This document shows positions 1-50,859 of a stretch of DNA of 64,000 bases, piece by piece; the stretch's first letter is position 1, and the number at the start of each line of letters is the position of its first letter. The stretch covers positions 67,033 to 131,032 of the forward strand of contig CAYWJU010000002.1 in assembly GCA_964458645.1 (NCBI GenBank). The letters run 5' to 3'. The notes below the pieces were generated by a model, which did no database searches, had not been told where the DNA came from, and saw only the letters and a list, made by a program, of their open reading frames with translations. The translations under genes were made by a program, and so were the position numbers. Source of the DNA: an uncultured Candidatus Peribacteria bacterium (GTDB lineage Bacteria; Patescibacteriota; Gracilibacteria; Peribacterales; Peribacteraceae).

Positions 1-1680
1 CTTGGCGATCTTGTATTTTGCCCACTCGTCGTCGGTGAACAGGCGCACCAAGTCGGTAATGGCACCGCCTTCGTCCTCGTCGGCCATCAACGTGAGACAG
101 CCGTTGCGGAAGTAGTCCTGGATGCGCGGGCCGAAAATTTCTTCGCCGAACATCTTCACCATCATGCTCATAGCGTCGAGTGCGATAAGGTCTCGCTCTT
201 CGTCGTTCTTGCCCTCCAGCATGTTCAGGCCCATCGGCCGGCCGGTATCTGCCGGGTTGAAGTAAATGACGTCGTCGGCACGTTCGCGTGGCACGTACGG
301 CAGCAAGTCTTCAATCAGTGAACCGTGCGGATCGACCACGCAGATGCCGTGCTTTTTGTGGAAGTCCTGGCGTGCCATTAGCTGGATGACCGATGATTTA
401 CCGGTACCTGTCTGACCGATGACGTAGAAGTGGCGGAAACGGTCTTCGTTCTTCATGAAAATTTTCTTCTTCTCGCCGCGGTAGGTGTTATAGCCGAGGA
501 ATAGGCCTTCCTCGGGAATGTTCTTGGGACACGGCGCGATCTTGAAGTTCTGCCATTTGATCGTGCTGACCTTGTTGTACTTAATGTTCGGGAAATGGAA
601 GATGCTGGCCAATTCGGCGGTGCCGAGCAGCAACTTCTTGCTGAACCAGCGCTGCCACAGCGGGCGGCTGGGGTTGCGGCGAATGAAGCGGTAAATCAGG
701 TTGATGTTCGAGTGGTAGCGCGTGCGCTTGAAGCTGTTGCCGCGGATATCGTTGAACTGCGAAAAGCCACCCACAATCGTGTCCAGCAGCATGTTGCTGC
801 GGTCGGCGGTTTCGGCCGAAGCAACGATGCGGATGACCGCCGTGAAGCCCGGTGAGTTGGCTTTTTCGTCCATGCCTTTGCTGAGCTCCTCCACCATGCT
901 GGTGATGCGCTCGCCGCTGGACGTTTCCTTGAACTGGTCTTTGCCGTCCGACGAGAACATGTCGACCAGCGAGCTGATCCACGACATGGGGTTTTTCCAC
1001 GAGAAGCCGCCGCCTTTCTTGGGGTTGAGCAGTTTCTGGGCTTCCTTCTGCACCTTATCCTGCCACTTGGGCAGTAGCGGGCGCAGCACCACCTGCACCG
1101 CGGCGCCTTCGTTCTTGCTCAATTTGGAGAACGCGTTGGTAATGGCGTTGAACGGGTCGCTCTTCAAGTGCTGGTAGCTCTTGAACGGATAGACGAAACT
1201 CTTGGATGGCAGCAGGTACGTGGACGACGTCACCGAGTTTTTCGTGAAGATGTTGTAGTCCTCCACTTCGTCGATGACCGCGTCGGGGTAGAACGAGGTG
1301 ATCTGCTTTTCGATGATCGGTGCCACGCGACGCGGCGCAACCACGAAAATAAGGATTTCGCCGGCCAGCGCTGCGTACTCGAACGAGATGAACGGCGAAC
1401 CTTTCCAGTGTCGCTGAATGCTGCTTTCGGCCAAGCTTCCAAACGTCTGGTACAGGTGGTCCATGACGCCCAGTACTTCTTTAAAATCTTTGCCGGTCGA
1501 GAACTGTTCTGATTCCTGCTCCTTGTCTTCTTTGCCCTCTTTTTTCGGCATCAGAATCTGCAAGAAGACGAGCTGCTTTTCGCGTTTGCGGTCCTCCATC
1601 CGGCGCATCATTTTCAGCCCATGACGGATTCCCAGCACAATTGCCGCGATGCTGCCGATAAGGATGAGAAATGTCTGCAC
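1..1680 (-). CDS. VirD4/TraD/TraG-like membrane-anchored P-loop ATPase, paralog A (C-terminus runs off the window)
   Basis: Own translation of the minus strand; the ORF is absent from the ORF track because it is truncated. GTG at 1680 follows an in-frame TAA at 1699-1701. One N-terminal hydrophobic helix (TFLILIGSIAAIVLGI). Walker A GQTGTGKS at 394-417. Blocks VVDPHGSLIED, RPMGLNMLE and IFGPRIQDYFRNGCLTLM are shared with ORF 24046-26670. Confidence 0.8.
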   Translation of the reverse strand, partial: MQTFLILIGSIAAIVLGIRHGLKMMRRMEDRKREKQLVFLQILMPKKEGKEDKEQESEQFSTGKDFKEVLGVMDHLYQTFGSLAESSIQRHWKGSPFISFEYAALAGEILIFVVAPRRVAPIIEKQITSFYPDAVIDEVEDYNIFTKNSVTSSTYLLPSKSFVYPFKSYQHLKSDPFNAITNAFSKLSKNEGAAVQVVLRPLLPKWQDKVQKEAQKLLNPKKGGGFSWKNPMSWISSLVDMFSSDGKDQFKETSSGERITSMVEELSKGMDEKANSPGFTAVIRIVASAETADRSNMLLDTIVGGFSQFNDIRGNSFKRTRYHSNINLIYRFIRRNPSRPLWQRWFSKKLLLGTAELASIFHFPNIKYNKVSTIKWQNFKIAPCPKNIPEEGLFLGYNTYRGEKKKIFMKNEDRFRHFYVIGQTGTGKSSVIQLMARQDFHKKHGICVVDPHGSLIEDLLPYVPRERADDVIYFNPADTGRPMGLNMLEGKNDEERDLIALDAMSMMVKMFGEEIFGPRIQDYFRNGCLTLMADEDEGGAITDLVRLFTDDEWAKYKIAK

Positions 1681-1714: not shown

Positions 1715-4700
1715 TTACGGTCGTCCTATCACCCCCCACCACAGCTCTCCCACCGGCGTCTCCGGCATGGGCGGCACCTGCAACTCCGGTCCCAGCACGT
1801 CCGACAACACCGTAATCAGCTGTCCCCAGGTGAGTGCTTTCCCATCGCCCACATTCCCCATGCGCCACACCTCGGCGTCCTGCACGCCGGTCAATTCCTG
1901 CAAGATGCTCGTCTTCAGCTCTGCAAACACGCCTTCCGCCTCCAATCTGGTCATGGCTCCCGTCCGTACCCGCGTGTACAGCACGTACGACGCAAGCAGC
2001 CTGCTCGCATTCGTCACCGACACCGGCGCACTGAAGTCTTTCTGTTCTTCCAGCGTCAAATCCTGCGCAAAGCTCAGCGGTGTCAGGTCGAACTCCCGAA
2101 TCGGACGTTGGAAGCTGTGCAGCAACCGCTGCACGTACGTCGTTCCATCCGCAGTGCCAAACACCCGGTCTGGCGAGAAGATGCGGTTGGCCGTGCCTCC
2201 GCCACTCACATCCACGCCCCCTCCTCCCAAGCGCTGCACCGCATCGGAGTAGCTCTCCAGCGGATGACACGTCATCTTCATGCCCGCATCCACCAGACCG
2301 ATCCAGGTCACCGGCTTGTTCGCACCCACGCCGATCGTTCCTGCCTGCACACCGTACTCACTTGGGCGTCCGGTCATCAGCCACCGTGTGCGTCCTTCGG
2401 CATCGCCCGTTCCCACCGACAGCAACAACTGCAAGCGCTGGAACAAGTTTCCTTCCGCATTCGGCAGAATGTCCGACCGCACCGATGTCGCACGACCAAT
2501 GTCTTGCACCATGCACGGACGACGATCAATCACGCCTGCCGCCGCCAAGTACTCCTGTTCCATGCTCTGATCCCAGCGCACTTCATCCGGCAATGCCGAC
2601 AGCGTCAGCTTGCCTCCCGCAAACGCCGCCTTCACCAGCAAGTCAGCCGCCTCCGACGGCGTCACGCCGCCTCCCAGAGCCACTTCGAACCCGCGTGGCA
2701 GCACGCCTGCTTGCTTCAATGCGGCAAACACACCGCTCGTTCCATCGTCCTCCGTCGCATCCGGCGGCAATGCCGCCGTTCCATCCGTCTTCAGCTTCAA
2801 CACGGCCGCCACCATCGCCATGGCCTCACGCTTCGTCACCGGAGCATCGCCATCGGCAACCAGCACTCCACCCGCATTCCTGCCCACCGGAACACCCTGG
2901 GCGAGCAGCGCGTACGCATTGCTCATCCACGACGTTCCTCCCGCAGTCTCCGGCACCGGCACATCGGCCAGCACCCCCGATGTCCATCCTTGTTCCTTGG
3001 CGGCCGACCGCAATCCTTCCCGCAGCGCATCGCCGCTCTTCGACAAGCTCAGACACTGCGTTCCGGCCAGCAGTTCAATGAACTCCTTGCGGCTCACCAA
3101 TGGCTCAGCCAATGCGCCGTCCTTCACCAACTGTTGTCCGTACAAGTTCTGCAAACTCCAGAGCAACGCCTGGGCAACGCTCTTGCCATCCGTCTCCACC
3201 GTTCCAATGCTCAGACACGGTTTGTAGCCAAGCAGTTTCTGGCTCTTCCAGCCCAACCCCACCGTCACCGTTTCTCCTGCCACAACCTCCACCGATTGCC
3301 CTTCTGCAGTCGCTACATATCCTTGCAGCACACCAGACGAATCCACCGCCTGAACAACGTATGTTCCGGCCGGAAGGCTCATCTCGAATGCTCCATTCAC
3401 GTCCGCCACCACCGCCTGCGTCACCGCAGCACCTTCCACGTCCGTTCCCGTCGCCTCCACCCGCACGCCGCCGAACGCCGTACGCTCACCCTTTTCCTTC
3501 TTGCCGTTGCCGTTCACGTCCACGAACAGTTGCCCCGCAAGCGTGCCAGACGGCACCCCGGCCTCACCGCCTCCCGACTCTTGCCCGGACAACCAGTAGC
3601 CGCCACCGCCACCGCCCTCACCGCCGCTTGTCGTTCCTCCGCCACCCGTACTGCCACCCGTCGTTCCTCCGCCACCGCCACCTACCAAACAATCGCTGCC
3701 GATGGTCAGCGTCTGTTCAGCCGACTCACTGCTCAGCCTCAGCCCCGTATCCACCGTCTTCACTCCCCAGTAGTACGTTGCTCCGCACGCCAACCGATTC
3801 ACCAACCGCTGCCGGCTCTGTCCATTCGGCATCATGCGATCCGCATAGTTCGGACTGGCCACCTTGCCCGAAATCACATCGTGCCCATTCGACACCGTTC
3901 CCACCCGCACCTGGTACTGCAGCTGCCGTGTCGGTGTAATCGCATCCGAACCGGAGCCCCACAACATGAGTACATCCACCTCGTTGTAGTAGTAGACAGT
4001 GATTTTTACGTTATCGATCGATGGAGTTGAGTTTCCAACACCGCAAGGAAACTGCGTTGCGGAAAGAGCAGCACCGAAATTGGTCGCATTAATATCACTG
4101 GTCGTCCACGTTTCGCCCCACAGATCGGTAGAACCGCCGTAATCGATAAACGTGCCGCTTGGCCAAAGTGAGCCCAGGCTTTTATCTGTGCTGCCGATTA
4201 CGCCGCGCTTCACGATACGTACGCCGTTGTCCCACATGCCGCAACCGCCATAGTTCTTGTTCCACGAGGCCACGATGCCGACAATCGTTGAGCCGGAAGC
4301 AATGTTAAAACCGAAGTCCGTCGCCTGCAGCCAATGCGTGGTGTGGTTGGTCATGTCCATCAGGCCGCCGCTGGCGCTGACGCTATTGAGCGTGAAGATG
4401 TTTTCCGGATGCAGCCAGGGCATAGTTCCCACACCTGCAATGTCAGTGGCCATGAGCGGCATTCTTGGCGTGGAGCCGGTAGAGCGACTTGCGCTGATGG
4501 TTGAAAGGAGTGTTGTGGGCGCAGTAGGGCTGTCGTTTGGTGTGGAGAACGCGATCGAATTCACATAGTGGCGATTCGGTCCGCCGCTACCGCCGCAGTT
4601 CGTGTCATCATTGCCGGCGATGTAATCCAAGTCGGAATCGGCATCGATATCCGCGAGTGCGACTGCAATTGTGCAATCGCTTTCTTCGGTTGGAGCTCCG

Positions 4701-6004: not shown

Positions 6005-6050
6005 GAAAAACACCCTTTTTGAAAGAGCGTCATGGCTCCGTCTCTGGCGA

Positions 6051-6428
6051 TTACGCGGCCTTACTCTTCACCAGGCGCTCCACCATTTCCATAAGCGATT
6101 TGATCGTCATGTCTTTCTTCACAAAGTAATCATCTACCTTCAGTGCTGCACCGCGGTCACGGTTTGCTTGGTCGGCGAAATTGGTCAGGATGATAATCGG
6201 AAACGTGCGCATGTCGGGCGCAAGCTTCTCCAGCACGCCGAAACCATCGAGCACCGGCATGTTGATGTCCAGCAGCATCAGATCAGGCTTTTTGGCTTGA
6301 ATAAGAGCCAAAGCCTCTTGTCCGTTGGTGGCCGTACGCACCGAATAGACGTCCTTATTGAACTTGCGCATATACAAGTCCCGGAGGACCGTATCGTCTT
6401 CGGCGATGAGTACGTCGTACATGACCAT
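6051..6428 (-). CDS. Single-domain response regulator (CheY-like receiver)
   Basis: VLIAEDD...LMLLDINMPVLDG...IIILTNFAD...KVDDYFVKK receiver motifs. The start was moved to ATG 6428 (MVMYDVLIAEDD) because the longer ORF overlaps tsf. Confidence 0.85.
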   Translation of the reverse strand: MVMYDVLIAEDDTVLRDLYMRKFNKDVYSVRTATNGQEALALIQAKKPDLMLLDINMPVLDGFGVLEKLAPDMRTFPIIILTNFADQANRDRGAALKVDDYFVKKDMTIKSLMEMVERLVKSKAA

Positions 6429-6435
6429 TAGGCAC

Positions 6436-6441
6436 ATCATA
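6436..6441 (-). promoter_or_regulatory. -10 box TATGAT, 7 nt upstream of ATG 6428 (leaderless-type)
   Basis: Minus-strand sequence cgtgTATGATgtgcctaATG. Confidence 0.5.
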
Positions 6442-6508
6442 CACGAAAACGCCCCAAAAGTGAAGAAGTGTTTGTAGGGGGCAACAGTGGAGAGGGGTTT
6501 TTCACGAC

Positions 6509-6546
6509 AAAAAAGGTTCGGAGTTGCATGGAGCATTCCGAACCTT
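6509..6546 (-). terminator. Rho-independent terminator downstream of tsf
   Basis: 10-bp stem AAGGTTCGGA/TCCGAACCTT followed by a T-run on the minus strand. Confidence 0.65.
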
Positions 6547-6577
6547 CTGAGTCTTAAAAACCTTTTTAGCCTTTTCT

Positions 6578-15642: not shown

Positions 15643-15735
15643 CAGGAATCCGAAGAAACCGACGAAGCCGACGACTCAGAGGAATGCAGTTGTTCATCGG
15701 ACTCTTTGGAGTCCTTGGATTCCTCGGAATCTACA
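15643..15735. repeat. GGANTCC-unit array (locus 3, about 10 units in a single 9-bp phase)
   Basis: GANTC at 15647, 15674, 15701, 15710, 15719 and 15728, all congruent modulo 9. The last four are GACTC, GAGTC, GATTC and GAATC. Confidence 0.75.
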
Positions 15736-15771
15736 AAAAGAACCAATGGTATCCAGAACCACTCCTGCTCT

Positions 15772-20544: not shown

Positions 20545-20553
20545 GTCCGCGAG

Positions 20554-20559
20554 ATCGTA
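20554..20559 (-). promoter_or_regulatory. -10 box TACGAT, 9 nt upstream of carB ATG 20544
   Basis: Minus-strand sequence gcTACGATctcgcggacATG. Confidence 0.4.
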
Positions 20560-20649
20560 GCTGCAGGATTCCCATCCTGCAACACCAATACTCGAACATC
20601 GGAAAAGATCGCGACAGATGTTCGGCTTTCGCCGATATTCGCAATGATT

Positions 20650-20871
20650 TTAGACTTCGTGTGCCATCAGCACACGCACTCCGGCTAGCATTTCTGTGCG
20701 GATATGCGTTGCCAATTCCTTACCGCGCAGACCGCTGTCGCGGCCGGACACCAGTGCCTCTTCGCCTGTGGCGATCACTTCGTCCACTGCGTCACCCGTA
20801 CGACTTCATCCGTCAGTGTGCTCGATGACGAGGCGTTCGGCATAGCGTGAGATGAATTCTGCTGCCTTCAT
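20650..20871 (-). pseudogene. Small ORF (21 + 51 codons) interrupted by an in-frame TGA at 20806-20808
   Basis: Own translation: MKAAEFISRYAERLVIEHTDG-TGA-SRTGDAVDEVIATGEEALVSGRDSGLRGKELATHIRTEMLAGVRVLMAHEV-TAA. No motif recognised. Confidence 0.25.
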
Positions 20872-21010
20872 ACCCGCACTCTAGGAATAGCAGCGTAACT
20901 GTCAAGAATTTGGCCATATGAGGCCAATTGATAGCATGTGTAGAGAAAATAACATTTCGTTCTTTTAATGTTCTCAAGAAACCCTGTCAATCATCGGAAT
21001 GACGCTTTTC

Positions 21011-21019
21011 TGCTACAAT
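21011..21019 (+). promoter_or_regulatory. Extended -10 TGcTACAAT upstream of ORF 21059
   Basis: Sequence match 40 nt upstream of the ATG. Confidence 0.45.
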
Positions 21020-21058
21020 AGTACGATTTCTTGAAGACCAACAACCCACACCCTTCCT

Positions 21059-22426: not shown

Positions 22427-22454
22427 ATAAATTTCGCACAGAGTTTCTTCCTTT

Positions 22455-22474
22455 CCACTTTTTTAAAAAAGTGG
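22455..22474 (+). terminator. AT-rich palindrome CCACTTTTTT/AAAAAAGTGG downstream of ORF 21059
   Basis: Perfect 20-bp palindrome 29 nt after the stop codon. Confidence 0.4.
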
Positions 22475-22672
22475 AGCAAAAACGTCGCGCGGCGGTCCGG
22501 CTGGCCACGCAGATCGCGATCTGTCGTGGCTGGCCTGCGCTCCACGCGCCTCACAGCCCTAAATTTCTTTGAAATTTTTCACGGTCTGTTTCGGCGGGAG
22601 CGCGACGGCACCAGCCCGATGCGCGACACTCCATCCCGTGTCCAACAAGCAGACAAGTACGAAAGGCATGTT

Positions 22673-22792
22673 GCGAGTTCTCTCACTCAATCCACCAAAG
22701 GGGTGGCGTGCGCTGCGCGCGGGGGTCTGCTGGAGGGCGCTCAGCGCACACGCGCTTTTTGGTTCCTTTTTGTCGCTCGGACAAAAAGGAAC
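22673..22792 (+). repeat. Structured repeat element, copy 1 (candidate ncRNA or MITE-like)
   Basis: Near-identical to the reverse complement of 50425-50557. Hairpins CCACC-aaagg-GGTGG, GTGCGCTG...CAGCGCAC and a perfect 13-bp stem GTTCCTTTTTGTC-gctcg-GACAAAAAGGAAC. Confidence 0.7.
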
Positions 22793-22820
22793 AGTCAATG
22801 TAAAAAGCGTGATTTCTTCA

Positions 22821-22829
22821 TGCTATACT
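22821..22829 (+). promoter_or_regulatory. Extended -10 TGcTATACT upstream of the RlpA-like gene
   Basis: Sequence match 14 nt upstream of ATG 22844. Confidence 0.45.
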
Positions 22830-22843
22830 TCGCGTCCAACGCT

Positions 22844-24045: not shown

Positions 24046-26670
24046 ATGGTCTTCATCCTTCGATTGCTCTTCTGGCCCATCTTGCTCCTCGTCGTAGAGG
24101 TCTTCTCGTTTGTGTTTAATTTGGGCATTTGGTCGAGCTTTTGGAATTGGCTCGTAGAAGATATCGGCTGGATGACGACAGGAGGAAAAATTCTGTTGCT
24201 GGTCACCGCGTATTACCTCATCCGGTATTTCATTTTCTGGCTGCGGTTTACGTACGCTTGGCACGCGTCCAAGAAGCTTGTGTGCGTGAAGGTCATTCTT
24301 CCCCGCAGCGACAGTAAAATCGACCAAGAGAAGCGCACCGAAAAGGATTTCAAAGAAAAAATCGCCATCATGGAACAGTTGTTCCGTGCGCTGTATGAAG
24401 TGAAGGATCTTACGGTGTGGAACGTGATTGAATTTTGGATTACGCGTTTCATTACCATCAGCTTCGAGCTTGTGGTGGAAGAGGGTCTGATTTCATTCTA
24501 CGTGCTGTGCCCAAAGCGCTTGGAGTCCATTGTGGAAAAGCAAATCACATCGTTCTATCCGAATGCAGAAGTCATTCCAAAAAAGACGCCCGACATTTGG
24601 CCCAAAGGATACAAGCTGGTCGGGTACAACTTGCTCTGCCGCAAGTCGTACGAATACCCGTTGCGCTTTTACGACCACATGCAGGATGACCCGCTCAACG
24701 ACATTATCAACGTGCTTTCCAAGCTGAATCCCGATGAAACAGCCACCGTCCAGCTGATCATCACCCCCACGTTCACTGAGCATTGGTCCAAGCGTATTAA
24801 GGGCATTGCCAGCGAAAGCTTCAAGGGCCACAAGAAGAGCTTTATCCAGAAAATCCCGGGTCTTGGCTTCATCGGTACGGCCATCAACATGATCACCAGC
24901 GACGATGCCGCCAAGAACTTCGCCCCCGGCTCCAAGGGCGGCGATGCGTTCGTGCGCATGCTCCAGCCCGAGGAAGAATTGTTCAAGCGCATGGGCGAGA
25001 AGGCCGGAATGTCGGGCTACCACACCACCGTCCGCGTGCTGGCTGCCGCCAAGACGTGGGAGCGCGCGCTCGACATTACCAACAACTTGCAAGTTGCCTT
25101 CAACGTGTTCAAGGACATGTACGGCAATTACTTTAGGAACCGCCGCATGATGACGGACTTCATGCCGCTCGAAATCAATCAGAAGCTTATCTATCCGCTG
25201 TGGCTGCGCCGCATCAACGGCTATGCCCATGCCCGTAACCTGCTGACCGAAAAGGAATTGGCGTCCATCTACCACTTCCCAGACAGCCGCTACAACACCA
25301 TTCCGAACATCGACTGGGTCAAATACAAGATTCTTCCTCCTCCTCCGGTCGAATTCAAGTCGGGCGTCCAGCTCGGTATCAACCGCTTCCGCGGATTGGA
25401 AACCATGGTGCGCTTCATGGACAAAGACCGCACGCGTCACCAGTACATCATCGGTAAATCCGGTTCGGGTAAGTCTGCCTTGCTCAACTGGCAGTCGCGT
25501 CAGGACATCGCGAACGGCGCGGGTCTGTGCATCGTCGACCCGCACGGAGACCTGATCGAAGACGCTCTCGCCCACACCCCGAAGGAGCGCGCCAAGGACG
25601 TGATCGTATTTGATCCGGCCGACACCGAACGACCCATGGGCCTGAACATGCTCGAAGCCAAAACGTCGGAAGAGAAAGACCGTGCCTCGCTCGACGCGAT
25701 GGAAATCTTCATCAAGATGTTCGGTAACGAAATCTTCGGACCACGTATCCAGCACTACTTCCGCAACGGTTGTCTCACGCTGATGGACGACGAAGAGGAA
25801 GGTGCCACGCTCATCGACGTGCCGCGTCTGTTCGTGGATGACGAATTCCAGCGCTACAAGGTCAGCAAGTGCAAGAACTCGGTCGTGCGCGGCTTCTGGA
25901 GCAATGAAATGGCCAAGACGGGTGCACGTGAAAAAGAAGAAATGATCCCGTACTTCTCGGCCAAGTTCGGTCCGTTCGTGACGAACGCCACTATGCGCAA
26001 CATCATCGGACAACCCAAGTCGGCGTTCAACATCCGCGAAGTCATGGACACCGGCAAGGTGCTGCTGGTGAACCTGTCCAAGGGAAAAATCGGCGATACC
26101 AACGCTCAGCTGCTGGGACTCATCTTCGTGAACAAGGTGAACATGGCGGCCATGAGCCGCGCCGACATCCCGCAGAAAGACCGCAAGCGCTTCTACCTGT
26201 ACGTCGACGAGTTCCAGAACTTCATCACCGACGCATTCGCGACCATTCTCTCCGAAGCTCGTAAGTACGAACTCGGTCTGGTGATGGCCCACCAGTATAT
26301 CGGCCAGCTGGTCGGCAAGACCGAAGGCTACGGACAGGCCAGCTCCAAAATGCGCGACGCCGTGTTCGGTAACGTGGGTACCATCATGAGCTTTAAGATC
26401 GGTGCCGAAGACGCCGAGTACATGGCCAAAGAAATGGCTCCGGTCGTGTCCGAACAAGACGTCATCGGCATTCCGAACTTCAACTGCTACGTGAAGCTGA
26501 ACATCAACAACACTACGTCGCGTCCGTTCTCGCTGGCGACCATTTACGACGAGTCCGATCGAAACGAGAAGCTCGGTGCGCTCATTAAGGAATACAGCCG
26601 CATGAAGTACGGCCGCAAGAAGGTGTTCGTGGACCAGGAAATCGAGGATCGCATTGGAATCGCTAAGTAG
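24046..26670 (+). CDS. VirD4/TraD/TraG-like membrane-anchored P-loop ATPase, paralog B
   Basis: N-terminal TM helices. Walker A GKSGSGKS. IVDPHGDLIED, RPMGLNMLE, IFGPRIQHYFRNGCLTLM, Walker B-like FYLYVDEFQNF, LVMAHQYIGQL. Confidence 0.85.
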   Translation: MVFILRLLFWPILLLVVEVFSFVFNLGIWSSFWNWLVEDIGWMTTGGKILLLVTAYYLIRYFIFWLRFTYAWHASKKLVCVKVILPRSDSKIDQEKRTEKDFKEKIAIMEQLFRALYEVKDLTVWNVIEFWITRFITISFELVVEEGLISFYVLCPKRLESIVEKQITSFYPNAEVIPKKTPDIWPKGYKLVGYNLLCRKSYEYPLRFYDHMQDDPLNDIINVLSKLNPDETATVQLIITPTFTEHWSKRIKGIASESFKGHKKSFIQKIPGLGFIGTAINMITSDDAAKNFAPGSKGGDAFVRMLQPEEELFKRMGEKAGMSGYHTTVRVLAAAKTWERALDITNNLQVAFNVFKDMYGNYFRNRRMMTDFMPLEINQKLIYPLWLRRINGYAHARNLLTEKELASIYHFPDSRYNTIPNIDWVKYKILPPPPVEFKSGVQLGINRFRGLETMVRFMDKDRTRHQYIIGKSGSGKSALLNWQSRQDIANGAGLCIVDPHGDLIEDALAHTPKERAKDVIVFDPADTERPMGLNMLEAKTSEEKDRASLDAMEIFIKMFGNEIFGPRIQHYFRNGCLTLMDDEEEGATLIDVPRLFVDDEFQRYKVSKCKNSVVRGFWSNEMAKTGAREKEEMIPYFSAKFGPFVTNATMRNIIGQPKSAFNIREVMDTGKVLLVNLSKGKIGDTNAQLLGLIFVNKVNMAAMSRADIPQKDRKRFYLYVDEFQNFITDAFATILSEARKYELGLVMAHQYIGQLVGKTEGYGQASSKMRDAVFGNVGTIMSFKIGAEDAEYMAKEMAPVVSEQDVIGIPNFNCYVKLNINNTTSRPFSLATIYDESDRNEKLGALIKEYSRMKYGRKKVFVDQEIEDRIGIAK

Positions 26671-26757
26671 AGGATTCCGAGGACGCCGAAGAATCCGATG
26701 ATTCCGAAGAATGTTTTCGTCGTACTCTTCGGCTTCGCCGGTTTCTTCGGACTCTTG
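26670..26757. repeat. GGANTCC-unit array (locus 4, two arms in opposite orientation)
   Basis: GATTC at 26673, GAATC at 26691, GATTC at 26700, GACTC at 26750. The right arm runs directly into the -10 box of the next gene. Confidence 0.7.
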
Positions 26758-26764
26758 ATACACT
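26756..26764 (+). promoter_or_regulatory. Extended -10 TGaTACACT, 6 nt upstream of ATG 26771
   Basis: Sequence match with leaderless-type geometry. Confidence 0.5.
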
Positions 26765-26770
26765 GTCGCC

Positions 26771-27790
26771 ATGACTCGATCAGAGCATATTCAAATCTTC
26801 GTGGAAGAAATTTGGAGTTGGTACTCCCGCCACAAACGCACGCTTCCTTGGCGCGACTTGAAGGTGAAGGACGACACGCAGCGCGCCTATGCGGTGTTAG
26901 TTTCCGAAATCATGCTGCAGCAGACCCAGGTGCCGCGGGTCATTCCAGCGTTCAGGGCTTTCCTAGAGCGGTTTCCGACACTTGGCGATCTGGCCAAAGC
27001 CGGAAACGCCGACATCATTCGGCAGTGGAAGGGGATGGGCTACAACAACCGCGCTCTTCGCTTGCGCGATGCTGCCCGAACGATTGTGGAACAACATGGC
27101 GGAGTCTTTCCGAAGTCCATGGAAGAACTGCTGAACATCAGCGGCATCGGGCACTACACCGCGGCCGCCGTCCGCAACTTCGCATTCGGCATTCCGACTC
27201 CATGTCTGGATACGAATATCCGCCGCGTGCTGCACCGCACGTTCGTCGGCGCCGAGAATCCGGACGGTACGTGGAAGAAAGATGATGAGTACCTGCTGAA
27301 ACTTGCGGGGGAAGTCTTGGCAGTTGCGATCTCTCCCGTGAAGAAAAACAGAGGGTCCTCGGACTCCTTGGATTCTTTGGTTTCTTCGGAATCCGGTGGG
27401 CGTCACGGGCCGGCGGACTGGCACGCTGCCCTCATGGACTTCGGCTCCCTCGTCTGCACCAAACGCGCTCCAAAATGGGACATCTGTCCGTTGACAAACA
27501 GAGGCGCGATGTTGGCTGCCTATAAAGTAAAAGAAGGAACAAAAAAGTTGATCAAGAAGGAGCCTGGCCGCGAGATCGCGGGCAAGTTCGTCCCCAACCG
27601 CATCATCCGCGGACGGGTGGTGGACGCGCTGCGCGATCACCCCAAATTGTCCGCCGACCAGATCGGCAAGCGCGTGTGCGTGGACTGGACCATGGGCGAT
27701 CATCGCGCGTGGCTGACCGGCATCATCGCCGGACTGAAGCGTGACGGTGTTCTTTCCGATGCCGGCAACGGCTTCGCGCTCAAAGACTGA
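26771..27790 (+). CDS. mutY: MutY-like HhH-GPD adenine DNA glycosylase (no NUDIX-like C-terminal domain evident)
   Basis: LPWR...YAVLVSEIMLQQTQVPRVIPAFRAFLERFP...WKGMGYNNRALRL...ISGIGHYTAAAV...LDTNIRRVL. The Fe-S loop is VCTKRAPKWDICPLTNRG. Confidence 0.8.
   Translation: MTRSEHIQIFVEEIWSWYSRHKRTLPWRDLKVKDDTQRAYAVLVSEIMLQQTQVPRVIPAFRAFLERFPTLGDLAKAGNADIIRQWKGMGYNNRALRLRDAARTIVEQHGGVFPKSMEELLNISGIGHYTAAAVRNFAFGIPTPCLDTNIRRVLHRTFVGAENPDGTWKKDDEYLLKLAGEVLAVAISPVKKNRGSSDSLDSLVSSESGGRHGPADWHAALMDFGSLVCTKRAPKWDICPLTNRGAMLAAYKVKEGTKKLIKKEPGREIAGKFVPNRIIRGRVVDALRDHPKLSADQIGKRVCVDWTMGDHRAWLTGIIAGLKRDGVLSDAGNGFALKD
27352..27398. repeat. GGANTCC-unit array (locus 5) embedded in frame in the MutY-like CDS
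   Basis: GACTC at 27361, GATTC at 27370, GAATC at 27388. Translated as RGSSDSLDSLVSSESG. Confidence 0.7.
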
Positions 27791-43085: not shown

Positions 43086-43808
43086 TCAGGTGGTAATGCC
43101 GACGCCTTCCAAATGTTTCTGACGCAGACGCAGCGGCATGGGCGCTTTGCTGATGTCCAACGACTCTTCGGTCCAGTCGGCATCCATGTCCGGCGTCCAC
43201 AAAGCCGCCGAACGGCTTCCGGCGACCAGTGCGCGTCCGGCCGGCAGCCGGTGGCCGCGTACCGATGCCATAGTGCCTTGCAACAGCGCGTACAGACTGT
43301 GGTAGGTGAACTGCAGGTGCTCCTCCAGGTAGATGTGCCAGCTCTTTTCGGCGATACGATTGCGTTCCAGGTCTGCCGTAAACAGCACGGCTGCTTCGGC
43401 TTGGGTCATATCCCGCATCGTGTAATCCGCAATCATAATCATGGCATGCGGGCAAGCATCTGCGATGTCCGCCAGGAAGTCGCTTCGGCGCTCTTCGGGC
43501 ACATCGTGGAGCACGTAGTTGACCAGCACGAGGCCGATGTCTTGCAACCGGTCCGCCGTCGTATCGCCAATGCCCTGCAGCCGGTTCACCACATCCTCAG
43601 GCTCGCACATGATGCCGATCGTCCGGCTTTGCTTCCGTGCCGTCAGCTTCAGTGCCCGGGCTCCCAGAGGACTGCGTTGCACGAAGTCCACGGCCAGGTT
43701 ATTGGGCGGCAAGAGCGTACGTGAATCCGATCGTTGAAACCTGTCGATGGTCCGCAGCATATCATCGGCTGCCTGCATGGACGTATCGGGAGTGGTCCGT
43801 ATTCCCAT
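43086..43808 (-). CDS. Methyltransferase-fold paralog with a degenerate SAM-binding loop
   Basis: IGLVLVNYVLHDVPEERRSDFLADIADACPHAMIMIADYTM parallels the downstream paralog, but no GxGxG motif is present. TGcTAGACT box lies 8 nt upstream of the ATG. Confidence 0.55.
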   Translation of the reverse strand: MGIRTTPDTSMQAADDMLRTIDRFQRSDSRTLLPPNNLAVDFVQRSPLGARALKLTARKQSRTIGIMCEPEDVVNRLQGIGDTTADRLQDIGLVLVNYVLHDVPEERRSDFLADIADACPHAMIMIADYTMRDMTQAEAAVLFTADLERNRIAEKSWHIYLEEHLQFTYHSLYALLQGTMASVRGHRLPAGRALVAGSRSAALWTPDMDADWTEESLDISKAPMPLRLRQKHLEGVGITT

Positions 43809-43816
43809 AGTTGCAA

Positions 43817-43825
43817 AGTCTAGCA
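43817..43825 (-). promoter_or_regulatory. Extended -10 TGcTAGACT, 8 nt upstream of ATG 43808
   Basis: Sequence match on the minus strand. Confidence 0.45.
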
Positions 43826-43928
43826 GGCTAGCGTACGAAAGCTAATTATTGAGAAATATCATCCAAACAACCGCTCTTACATGTATACAAAAAGAGATCA
43901 AACATTTTGTTATAAATAAGGGCTAAAT

Positions 43929-44312
43929 TTAGTTTGATCCCAATTTTTCTGATTGGCGTAAAAGATGAATGGCACGCGATCGAGCCCTTCTTTCAGCCTC
44001 AAAAAGACGGTGCAGCAGTGGGCCTGCCTTCGGGTGACGGTCCAGCAGTCCATCCAGCCGCATAAGAAGGATCATGGAGCGGCCTCGTTCACCTTTCTCA
44101 AATGCCGTAGGGTCGAAGGCGTCGTCATGTTCTTCCATCAGCGCAAAAGCTTCGGCCAGCGTGCCATCGTCATGCCGGTGTTCCTGGAGGAAGCGGCGCA
44201 GTTCATCGGCGATCACCACGGACATATCGTTACAGCGCTCGATGCTCATCTGAACAACCAAGGAATGGAGAGGTGGTTCTGCTTCGGAGCTATGCGGCGA
44301 TTCAGGGCTCAT
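43929..44312 (-). CDS. Hypothetical acidic protein
   Basis: 127-aa ORF with no recognisable motif. Confidence 0.45.
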   Translation of the reverse strand: MSPESPHSSEAEPPLHSLVVQMSIERCNDMSVVIADELRRFLQEHRHDDGTLAEAFALMEEHDDAFDPTAFEKGERGRSMILLMRLDGLLDRHPKAGPLLHRLFEAERRARSRAIHLLRQSEKLGSN

Positions 44313-45943: not shown

Positions 45944-45994
45944 GCATTCCAGGCATTTCAACAGGTCCAAGGGGTGCAAGGGAAAATATTAATC

Positions 45995-46033
45995 GTTGGA
46001 CTCCTCGGACTCTTCGGTTTCTTCGGACTCCTG
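45995..46033. repeat. GGANTCC-unit array (locus 6), fused to the dnaG -10 box
   Basis: GACTC at 45999, 46008 and 46026. Four tandem 9-mers TYGGWYTCY. Confidence 0.7.
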
Positions 46034-46039
46034 TATACT
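46034..46039 (+). promoter_or_regulatory. -10 box TATACT, 9 nt upstream of dnaG ATG 46049
   Basis: Sequence match. Confidence 0.5.
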
Positions 46040-46048
46040 CACTCTCCC

Positions 46049-50372: not shown

Positions 50373-50424
50373 TTGGGTGATGAATCGGAATCGGATCATG
50401 GGAAGAGTCTATTTAATTTCCATT

Positions 50425-50557
50425 GTCCCTTTTTGTCCGAGCGACAAAAAGGAACCAAAAAACGTGTGTGCGCTGAGCGCCCACGGCCGCTGCGGCGGCC
50501 AGACCGCAGGCCCCCGCGCGCAGCGCACACCACCCCTTTGGTGGCTTGAGCACTCGC
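50425..50557 (-). repeat. Structured repeat element, copy 2 (inverted relative to copy 1)
   Basis: The reverse complement aligns with 22673-22792. It carries an extra internal hairpin CTGCGG...CCGCAG. Confidence 0.7.
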
Positions 50558-50842
50558 GCCTTTGGTTCTTCTCGCTCACGTCTTCTCAGGGCCCGTAGTA
50601 CGGCAGAACCCTCGGCCGTTTCAAAGAGCTGATTCCTCACGCACAAGAAGCAGCCAGACGACAACGTCCATTCGGTTACGCATGGAGGGTAAGGGAGGTT
50701 CGGAGGGCCAAGGGAATCCCAAGGGGACTGCGCATCAAGCCTCTCGCTTCGCTCAAGTGCTTGCTGCTGGGAGCTGTGCTAGGTTCCCTGGTCCTCCGAG
50801 GAAGAATCTTTGGCAGCTTCAACAATGGATTGGCCAATGAAA

Positions 50843-50851
50843 TGCTATGAT
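50843..50851 (+). promoter_or_regulatory. Extended -10 TGcTATGAT, 8 nt upstream of ATG 50860
   Basis: Sequence match. Confidence 0.5.
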
Positions 50852-50859
50852 CATCTCCG

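Follow-up and report, generated by a model that had tools for sequence, protein, structure and literature searches.

The BOX elements of pneumococci (boxA-boxB-boxC), the Correia repeats of Neisseria and the ERIC/IRU sequences of enterobacteria can be co-transcribed with their neighbours and alter termination or stability. We have found a repeat of comparable build in Candidatus Peribacteria, in a 64-kb stretch of DNA (the window) that carries two copies of it. Like those three families it is small, non-coding, intergenic, multi-copy, hairpin-forming and modular, with insertions at fixed internal points (compare the 19-nt tip insert described below), although no sequence relation to any of them was found. 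Those families have inverted terminal repeats, to which the present repeat offers a candidate counterpart when its copies are compared with one another. It is unusual in this company in that one and the same end module is found on several unrelated structured bodies, in having a host that belongs to the candidate phyla radiation (CPR) and in having a core that recurs near-identically in Betaproteobacteria, i.e., across phyla, with an identical stretch given below. Besides, unlike in those families, a matching left repeat is present in one body class only, no target-site duplication (TSD) has been seen and the copy number is low.

The REP/BIME/REPIN sequences are, as is the present repeat, extragenic palindromes conserved as structures, and they share with it the inverted doublets (here in Ralstonia) and the landing of IS110-family elements; that REP-like repeats serve as such landing sites is known from IS110/IS1111 biology. 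However, a REP measures 20-40 nt, bears a GTAG-type motif and occurs tens to hundreds of times, with units on either side of a RAYT gene, whereas the present repeat spans 110-410 nt, reaches about 5-6 copies per MAG, lacks the GTAG motif and has no Y1/HUH gene near any copy. Intrinsic terminators share with its end module the GC stem, the run of 5-6 T and the complementary purine-rich tract upstream, all on one strand, but in the module a second, more conserved A/T-rich hairpin follows, and its copy 2 is antisense to the neighbouring genes. Finally, the omega RNAs/PATEs of IS200/IS605 elements and the bridge RNA of IS110 are likewise structured units of a few hundred nt at the end of a mobile element. 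The unit described here differs from them in having no adjacent cognate protein gene and no HEARO match, and in that the IS110 is inserted into the hairpin.

Two inverted copies and the larger units to which they belong

The sole long non-coding inverted repeat of the window is formed by 22686-22793 with 50424-50550, and a repeat search resolved it into two pairs of arms, 22735-22793/50424-50482 (59 nt, 95% identity) and 22686-22730/50506-50550 (45 nt, 93%). A sequence-only reading had reported two inverted copies here, and we confirm them: 22684-22793 on the + strand (copy 1) and 50424-50552 on the - strand (copy 2) are 93-95% identical outside one insert of 19 nt. This insert, noticed in the same reading, was placed by MAFFT at 50485-50503, where it extends the middle hairpin of copy 2 at its tip, and a longer tip of this kind is the commoner version among the copies of the family. 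Both copies, on both strands, beat 200/200 dinucleotide shuffles in folding (z -3.7 to -5.5). A covariance model of the module found two matches in the 64 kb, exactly the two known copies (113.1 bits, E 4e-23 for copy 1; 136.5 bits, E 3e-28 for copy 2).

Copy 1 is located between the genes for a peptidoglycan-binding protein and for a DPBB/RlpA-like protein, all on the + strand. Copy 2 (- strand) has two + strand genes as neighbours, one for a membrane protein and one for a uvrD-like helicase; it is divergent from uvrD, convergent with the membrane-protein gene and antisense to both. These spacers, of 417 and 487 nt, had been taken for the two longest non-coding gaps of the window; their lengths stand, but a crude ORF map has three longer ones, at 6014-6577, 20545-21058 and 43456-43964 (510-565 nt). 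None of the three is element-like, and by eye they seem to contain short genes, e.g., a receiver-domain gene on the - strand at 6014-6577. A Pfam scan of 20 window proteins gave only housekeeping or uncharacterised ones, with no transposase, reverse transcriptase or recombinase among them. Two TraG/VirD4-like paralogues (T4SS coupling protein, DUF87) at 1-1680 (-) and 24046-26670 (+) carry an inverted repeat of their own, 260 nt long and 72% identical (26-285/25585-25844). A 9-nt periodic motif, TCCTCGGACTCCTTGGATTC..., is found at or near gene ends at 15694-15744, 26717-26758, 27356-27397 and 45993-46043 and is probably a low-complexity coding repeat. The GC skew of the window was uninformative on strand bias.

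The size of 120-130 nt given to the element in the earlier reading has to be enlarged. Homology with other genomes reaches some 240-290 nt further 5', and judged by this homology the reported copies are no more than the 3' modules of larger units, which are non-coding and conserved. The two units of the window have different 5' bodies (classes A and B), and their features are as follows.

~22445-22793, + strand: class A unit, ~350 nt
22445-22683, + strand: class A 5' body, hairpin H1 and then a nested rod-like hairpin of ~170 nt
22455-22474, + strand: hairpin H1 of class A, CCACTTTTTT/AAAAAAGTGG
22684-22793, + strand: 3' module, copy 1 (alignment, folds, covariation, covariance model)
22692-22701, + strand: tract CCACCAAAGG of copy 1
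22708-22749, + strand: middle GC hairpin of copy 1, stem GTGCGCTG/CAGCGCAC
22756-22760, + strand: T-run of copy 1
22762-22792, + strand: terminal 13-bp hairpin of copy 1, loop GCTCG
22794-22843, + strand: 3' flank of copy 1, without the GGAAGAATC...GCATCA extension, holding the TGCTATACT promoter of the DPBB/RlpA-like gene
~50424-50832, - strand: class B unit, ~410 nt
50553-50832, - strand: class B 5' body, a long hairpin, an unpaired motif and a second structured domain
50800-50821, - strand: class B left terminal inverted repeat, TGAAGCTGCCAAAGATTCTTCC
50684-50700, - strand: ACCUCCCUUACCCUCC, conserved and unpaired, in the class B body
50424-50552, - strand: 3' module, copy 2 (alignment, covariance model)
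50457-50462, - strand: T-run of copy 2
50425-50455, - strand: terminal hairpin of copy 2
50373-50423, - strand: 3' flank of copy 2, with no intact extension, reaching the stop codon of the convergent membrane-protein gene

By alignment, the class A unit is common to the window and loci L004, L036, L041, L029, L021 and L016, the ~170-nt rod being variable in the length of its tip. The class B unit is common to the window, L019, L020, L034 and L042; the first long hairpin of its body is closed by GAAGCUGCC/GGCUGCUUC and has in the window copy an extra insert of ~58 nt. Coding potential was rejected for the element: with the 19-nt indel the reading frame shifts, and the two copies have different ORFs. 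A short hydrophobic reading frame inside class B, MDVVVWLLLVREESAL (50640-50692, -), is probably non-coding, since its length varies among copies.

The shared 3' end consists, in this order, of a tract rich in purines (CCACCARRRG), a hairpin that is GC-rich and varies in length, a T-run and the terminal hairpin. The latter is a near-invariant A/T-rich stem of 13 bp, TTCCTTTTTGTC-GCTCG-GACAAAAAGGRA (core TTGTC-GCTCG-GACAA), it is not followed by a T-run, and it is more conserved than the terminator-like hairpin, an invariance that in Peribacteria is partly due to our having searched with this very hairpin. The arrangement at 22708-22760, GTGCGCTG...CAGCGCAC ACGCGC TTTTT, has a counterpart in copy 2, and the GC hairpin with its T-run is kept in 12/12 distinct modules and in the Ralstonia arms, on one strand only. 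By this anatomy the 3' module appears intrinsic-terminator-like on its sense strand.

Covariation was evaluated in 12 distinct modules, folded with RNAalifold, by comparing pair counts with 500 shuffles and with slid controls. In the module 20 cells were changed on both sides, against 7.8+-2.0 in the shuffles (0/500) and at most 3 in the slid controls; the basal stem of the middle hairpin, for example, varies as CTG/CAG, CCA/TGG and ATG/CAT. The class A body had 10 pairs changed on both sides (4.6+-1.4 shuffled, 0/500; 0-1 slid) and the whole class B unit had 7 in its RNAalifold structure, mostly within the shared module. Outside the Peribacteria copies found with it the terminal hairpin covaries, reading CCTACTTCTTGTC-GCTCG-GACAAGAAGTAGG in Cupriavidus and CTTCTTTCTTTGTC-GCCCT-GACAAAGAAAGAAG in the metagenome locus L048, and with a C-G to A-T change in one Ralstonia copy. 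Regarding the three hairpins drawn in the sequence-only reading, the terminal 13-bp one and GTGCGCTG/CAGCGCAC are real, whereas the 3' arm of CCACC/GGTGG is lost in 5/12 distinct modules. A C-to-T and a G-to-A change that had been paired as compensatory do not face each other, the C/T being opposite an invariant A and the G/A two positions further out. We confirm the G-U wobble noted in the terminal stem, the U.G at GTTCC/GGGAC being the majority state (11/12 distinct modules). A possible closing helix, CCARRRGG/YUUUUUGG, fits 12/12 modules; only A-U to G-U changes support it and we therefore keep it as a candidate. Its need for G-U in all 12 modules would point to RNA-level selection on one strand.

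A dispersed family shared with Ralstonia and Cupriavidus

We scanned one genome per species with the pattern of the terminal hairpin, leaving the loop free. The 45 loci found were distributed among Peribacteria (15, in 4 MAGs), Ralstonia pickettii RAL3 (28) and Cupriavidus laharis (2). In Candidatus Peribacteria at least 17 copies, 210-410 nt long and from five related genomes, terminate in the shared module, with several copies per MAG (~5-6 detected per incomplete MAG), and at least five of the Peribacteria hairpin matches lie no more than 50 nt from a contig end. The copies are intergenic and non-syntenic, their flanking genes differ, and no recurrent neighbour protein family was found beside the Peribacteria copies. 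Nor is the sequence 5' of the conserved units conserved between copies. L021 also has a tmRNA gene (225-632, -; Rfam 98.6 bits) at ~700 nt from its class A copy, with no relation to the element. One and the same 3' module is attached to different bodies, namely class A, class B, a 'class C' (L025), a near-minimal one (L014) and a 5'-truncated class A (L032). Modules on different bodies and in different genomes are nearly identical (repeat identity 93-100%), which fits recent spread or gene conversion.

Intact copies continue beyond the terminal hairpin in an extension ending ...TTCTTGGCRGCATCA. It was found in 9 or 10 copies as GGAAGAATC-(loop)-ATTCTTGGCRGCATCA, after which the similarity ends, and the reverse complement of this 3' extension, GGAAGAATC...TTCTTGGCAGCATCA, resembles the class B left end (the end sequences of the family can also be given as TGATGCTGCC or TGATGCTGCCAAG...CTTGGCAGCATCA). 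The class B 5' end TGAWGCTGCCRAGRATT matched it with a best z of 7.2, and 0/500 shuffles were as good. The left repeat of the window (50800-50821) matched the extensions of 6/7 copies with z = 3-6 (0-10 of 500 shuffles equal), L029 being the unmatched one. Over 28 copy pairs, z was 3-7 in 16 and above 2.4 in 19, while the direct-orientation control gave background-level scores. The match was weak or absent with the divergent extension of L029 and in most L020 and L036 pairs, and L020 itself, the sole class B copy with both ends, scored 13 versus a shuffle mean of 13.1. The left repeat is absent from the start of the class A and class C bodies. At the level of the family, these data suggest that full class B units are bounded by a TGA...TCA inverted repeat. 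Both window copies lack the right-hand extension, and hence look 3'-truncated and are probably immobile relics. No TSD was recognised at the junctions examined, where the exact termini are fuzzy.

The spacer before uvrD is a case of presence and absence. Relatives share the gene order dnaG-rpoD-(membrane gene)-uvrD, and the spacer has the module antisense to the genes in the window and L008, and no element in L046, L047, L049-L051 and L081. L025, a locus of an uncultured Candidatus Peribacteria MAG with 90% identity to the window over 5.9 kb and an identical RpoD, by which the window itself can be assigned to a Peribacteria genome, has a different body there with the module in sense orientation, over the same interval to within a few bases per junction. 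Finally, L048, a relative with only 74% identity in RpoD, carries a diverged module in the orientation of the window (26.8 bits, E ~0.001). When L025 (770-1187) was compared with the window (50373-50859), the outermost 20-25 nt at both junctions still looked related, a hint that an inversion or replacement may have taken place between the inverted ends of the element. An inversion of the 27.7-kb segment between the two window copies was discarded as the source of L025, as it gives the wrong layout.

With the covariance model we found 50 module matches (38-63 bits) in 30 loci of Ralstonia RAL3 and Cupriavidus laharis. In RAL3 the two ends of a near-perfect, ~740-900-nt palindrome each carry an outward-facing module; examples of palindromes are L002 6815-7554, L012 2914-5050 and, in Cupriavidus, L001 6310-6980. 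A core of 42 nt, ACGCGYTTTTTGGTTCCTTTTTGTCGCTCGGACAAAAAGGGAC, is identical between Peribacteria and Ralstonia/Cupriavidus, and the CCACCA-purine tract and the GC hairpin are likewise common to the Peribacteria and Ralstonia modules. The outer ends of the palindrome carry a variable number of degenerate ~38-nt units (TGGTCGATGCTCGACGGC..GCTGGTGACATG). Neither the class A nor the class B body was found in the Ralstonia arms or in 811 kb of metagenome loci. Two kinds of insertion sequence were found within the palindromes. In L012 an IS256-family element of 1.39 kb occupies the centre (3270-4656), with an 8-nt overlap at the junctions that we read as the IS256 target duplication; the palindrome cannot represent the ends of IS256, this being a separate insertion with its own overlap. 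In L024 (4110-5600) an IS110-family transposase gene lies inside the 5' arm of the terminal hairpin (GGTT|CC...TTTTTGTC), and the same gene recurs in L010, L011, L026 and L027. These insertions indicate that other insertion sequences use the repeat as a landing site and, since IS110 interrupts the hairpin, that the hairpin is its target and not part of it.

Searches for described relatives were negative. Rfam 15 (including RNase P, tmRNA, SRP, 6S, riboswitches and HEARO) gave no match in the window at the gathering threshold, in agreement with the sequence-only reading, which had recognised no known RNA. At E <= 10 the two spacers had only meaningless matches of microRNA type, in 19 related loci only the unrelated tmRNA and two tRNAs were matched, and ARAGORN found nothing relevant. 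Resemblances by eye to T-box, SRP and RNase P were discarded, with no support from Rfam. BLAST against plasmid and phage collections matched neither the window unit nor the Ralstonia palindrome, which has no Rfam match either. No hairpin match was found in viral contigs, and none with a looser hairpin pattern in JGI metagenomes. A parent IS or an autonomous partner with the same ends was found neither in the window nor in the 45 genome loci or 80 metagenome loci. Literature searches with the element sequences and for Peribacteria noncoding RNA gave nothing relevant.

Mobile repeat or RNA gene

The family is new, being matched neither in Rfam nor in the literature searched. To describe the element as a modular, non-autonomous MITE/REP-like dispersed repeat with a terminator-like end and a conserved end hairpin is the reading we favour, and we hold it to be about evenly balanced between right and wrong. 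Of the two options in the sequence-only reading, a structured small RNA or a MITE/REP-like repeat, the latter agrees with the data: the copies are multiple, intergenic and non-syntenic, they differ in presence and orientation at one spacer, their stems covary, full copies have an inverted repeat at the level of the family, and in Ralstonia the module forms the ends of a palindrome targeted by insertion sequences. The former option has neither a promoter of the local type nor an Rfam match in its favour. That reading had also named, as an outcome that would speak against it, that the element be the terminal repeat of a recognisable mobile element, which applies in part. Like MITEs, the element is short, non-coding and present in several dispersed copies, but no parent IS was found in the loci and collections searched. 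Other points contrary to a MITE are that no TSD was recognised, that the inverted repeat is significant only across copies, that no autonomous partner was found in those collections and that the copies detected per incomplete MAG are few. As a mobile repeat, the element would be spread into intergenic spacers in trans by an enzyme encoded elsewhere, a transposase or recombinase that would recognise the end hairpin and the inverted repeat. Recombination or gene conversion from copy to copy would shuffle the bodies and keep the end module uniform. Once inserted, the module should form stable hairpins in any transcript that crosses it, and in the sense direction should stop transcription.

The element is most likely not a known RNA gene; an RNA role is possible. 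Most MITEs show less multi-helix covariation than these bodies, and such covariation would suit a functional RNA. The main alternative, which we consider doubtful, is that the units are paralogous, independently transcribed RNAs of ~350-410 nt, acting in trans, with different 5' domains and a shared 3' terminator module, whose scatter is explained by duplication alone. Class B might act through the unpaired, anti-Shine-Dalgarno-like ACCUCCCUUACCCUCC. This segment (50684-50700, -) resembles the 16S rRNA 3' end and, if transcribed, could pair with ribosome-binding sites. The compensatory changes extend over several helices of the module and of both bodies, as expected of RNA genes, and the GC hairpin followed by the T-run exists on one strand only, where the G-U pairs of the closing helix and of the terminal stem would be A-C on the opposite strand. 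Besides, copy 2 has the divergent/convergent layout of a stand-alone RNA gene, and L048 retains its diverged module in the same place and orientation at the distance given above. What weighs against it starts with the promoters. A local extended -10 box, TGCTATAMT (TGnTAnnnT), precedes 9/21 window gene starts examined, 15-48 nt before the start codon, and the sense strand of the two elements has no promoter of this local type, either internally or immediately 5'. The gene starts with the box (TGCTATAMT or TGATANNNT) include 21059, 22844, 24046, 26771, 31771, 50860, 60348 and 11648; its position only 15-17 nt before several start codons suggests leaderless or very short-leader mRNAs. Neither does the lack of conservation 5' of the units favour independent transcription, and in the class A body the use of G-U versus A-C has no clear asymmetry. 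The most conserved piece, the terminal hairpin, is located beyond the T-run and so outside the predicted transcript, the Ralstonia modules are the inverted ends of a palindromic repeat, and Rfam has no match.

A combination of both ideas, a mobile RNA-encoding module recently exchanged between CPR Peribacteria and Burkholderiales, with the bodies as RNA cargo and the end hairpin as the handle of an undescribed mobilisation system, is speculative and we consider it unlikely. Slightly lower still we place a REP/REPIN-like element that a Y1 (HUH) transposase, of RAYT or IS200/IS605 type, would move in the form of single-stranded DNA, reading the imperfect terminal hairpin with its G.T, the Ralstonia palindrome being a giant REPIN and the Peribacteria copies singlets. 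The structure of the hairpin is indeed kept, most copies having a strand-specific G.T, no TSD was found, the Ralstonia copies are inverted doublets, and an IS110-family element landed in the hairpin as it happens with REPs. However, a RAYT/TnpA gene was found in 0/45 loci and none in the window, the units are ten times the length of a REP and few per genome, and the GTAG-type 5' motif is absent. An inverted repeat with TGA...TCA termini, such as the ends of class B form when copies are compared, is a signature of DDE elements. A REP family is as a rule confined to one species and not common to several phyla, whereas the present element is found across phyla.

That we deal with ordinary intrinsic terminators or spacer hairpins, alike by local duplication or gene conversion and with no mobility, is very unlikely. 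The sense-strand terminator anatomy and the presence of merely two copies in 64 kb would agree with it, but not the 42-nt core identical in Peribacteria and Ralstonia/Cupriavidus, the 17 or more copies in unrelated contexts, the conserved and structured bodies, or the orientation of copy 2, which is wrong for terminating either neighbour. An orphan guide-type RNA (TnpB/IscB omega RNA or IS110 bridge RNA), left without its protein gene and with its guide just 3' of the scaffold, is the least probable of all, since, although a large structured unit stops exactly at the element boundary with variable sequence beyond, and in Ralstonia the module is associated with an IS110-family element, there are no TnpB, IscB or IS110 genes within 8 kb of any Peribacteria copy and no HEARO or other Rfam match, and the Ralstonia IS110 interrupts the hairpin.

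Significance for candidate-phyla-radiation genomes

CPR bacteria have tiny genomes that are thought to be poor in repeats and mobile elements. In these microbes, movement or recombination of a structured repeat from spacer to spacer would be a source of rearrangement and of broken assemblies. As the repeat has a terminator-like end adjoining promoters (those of uvrD and the RlpA-like gene), it may also reshape transcription units. If the bodies are functional RNAs, they would represent new RNA classes, not in Rfam. The transcription and mobility of the element might be testable in Ralstonia pickettii RAL3, a named strain whose genome is complete. That Ralstonia and Cupriavidus have a near-identical core suggests gene flow between phyla; if a recent exchange between Peribacteria and Burkholderiales is true, the element would also mark a physical host-episymbiont link with Ralstonia- or Cupriavidus-like bacteria.
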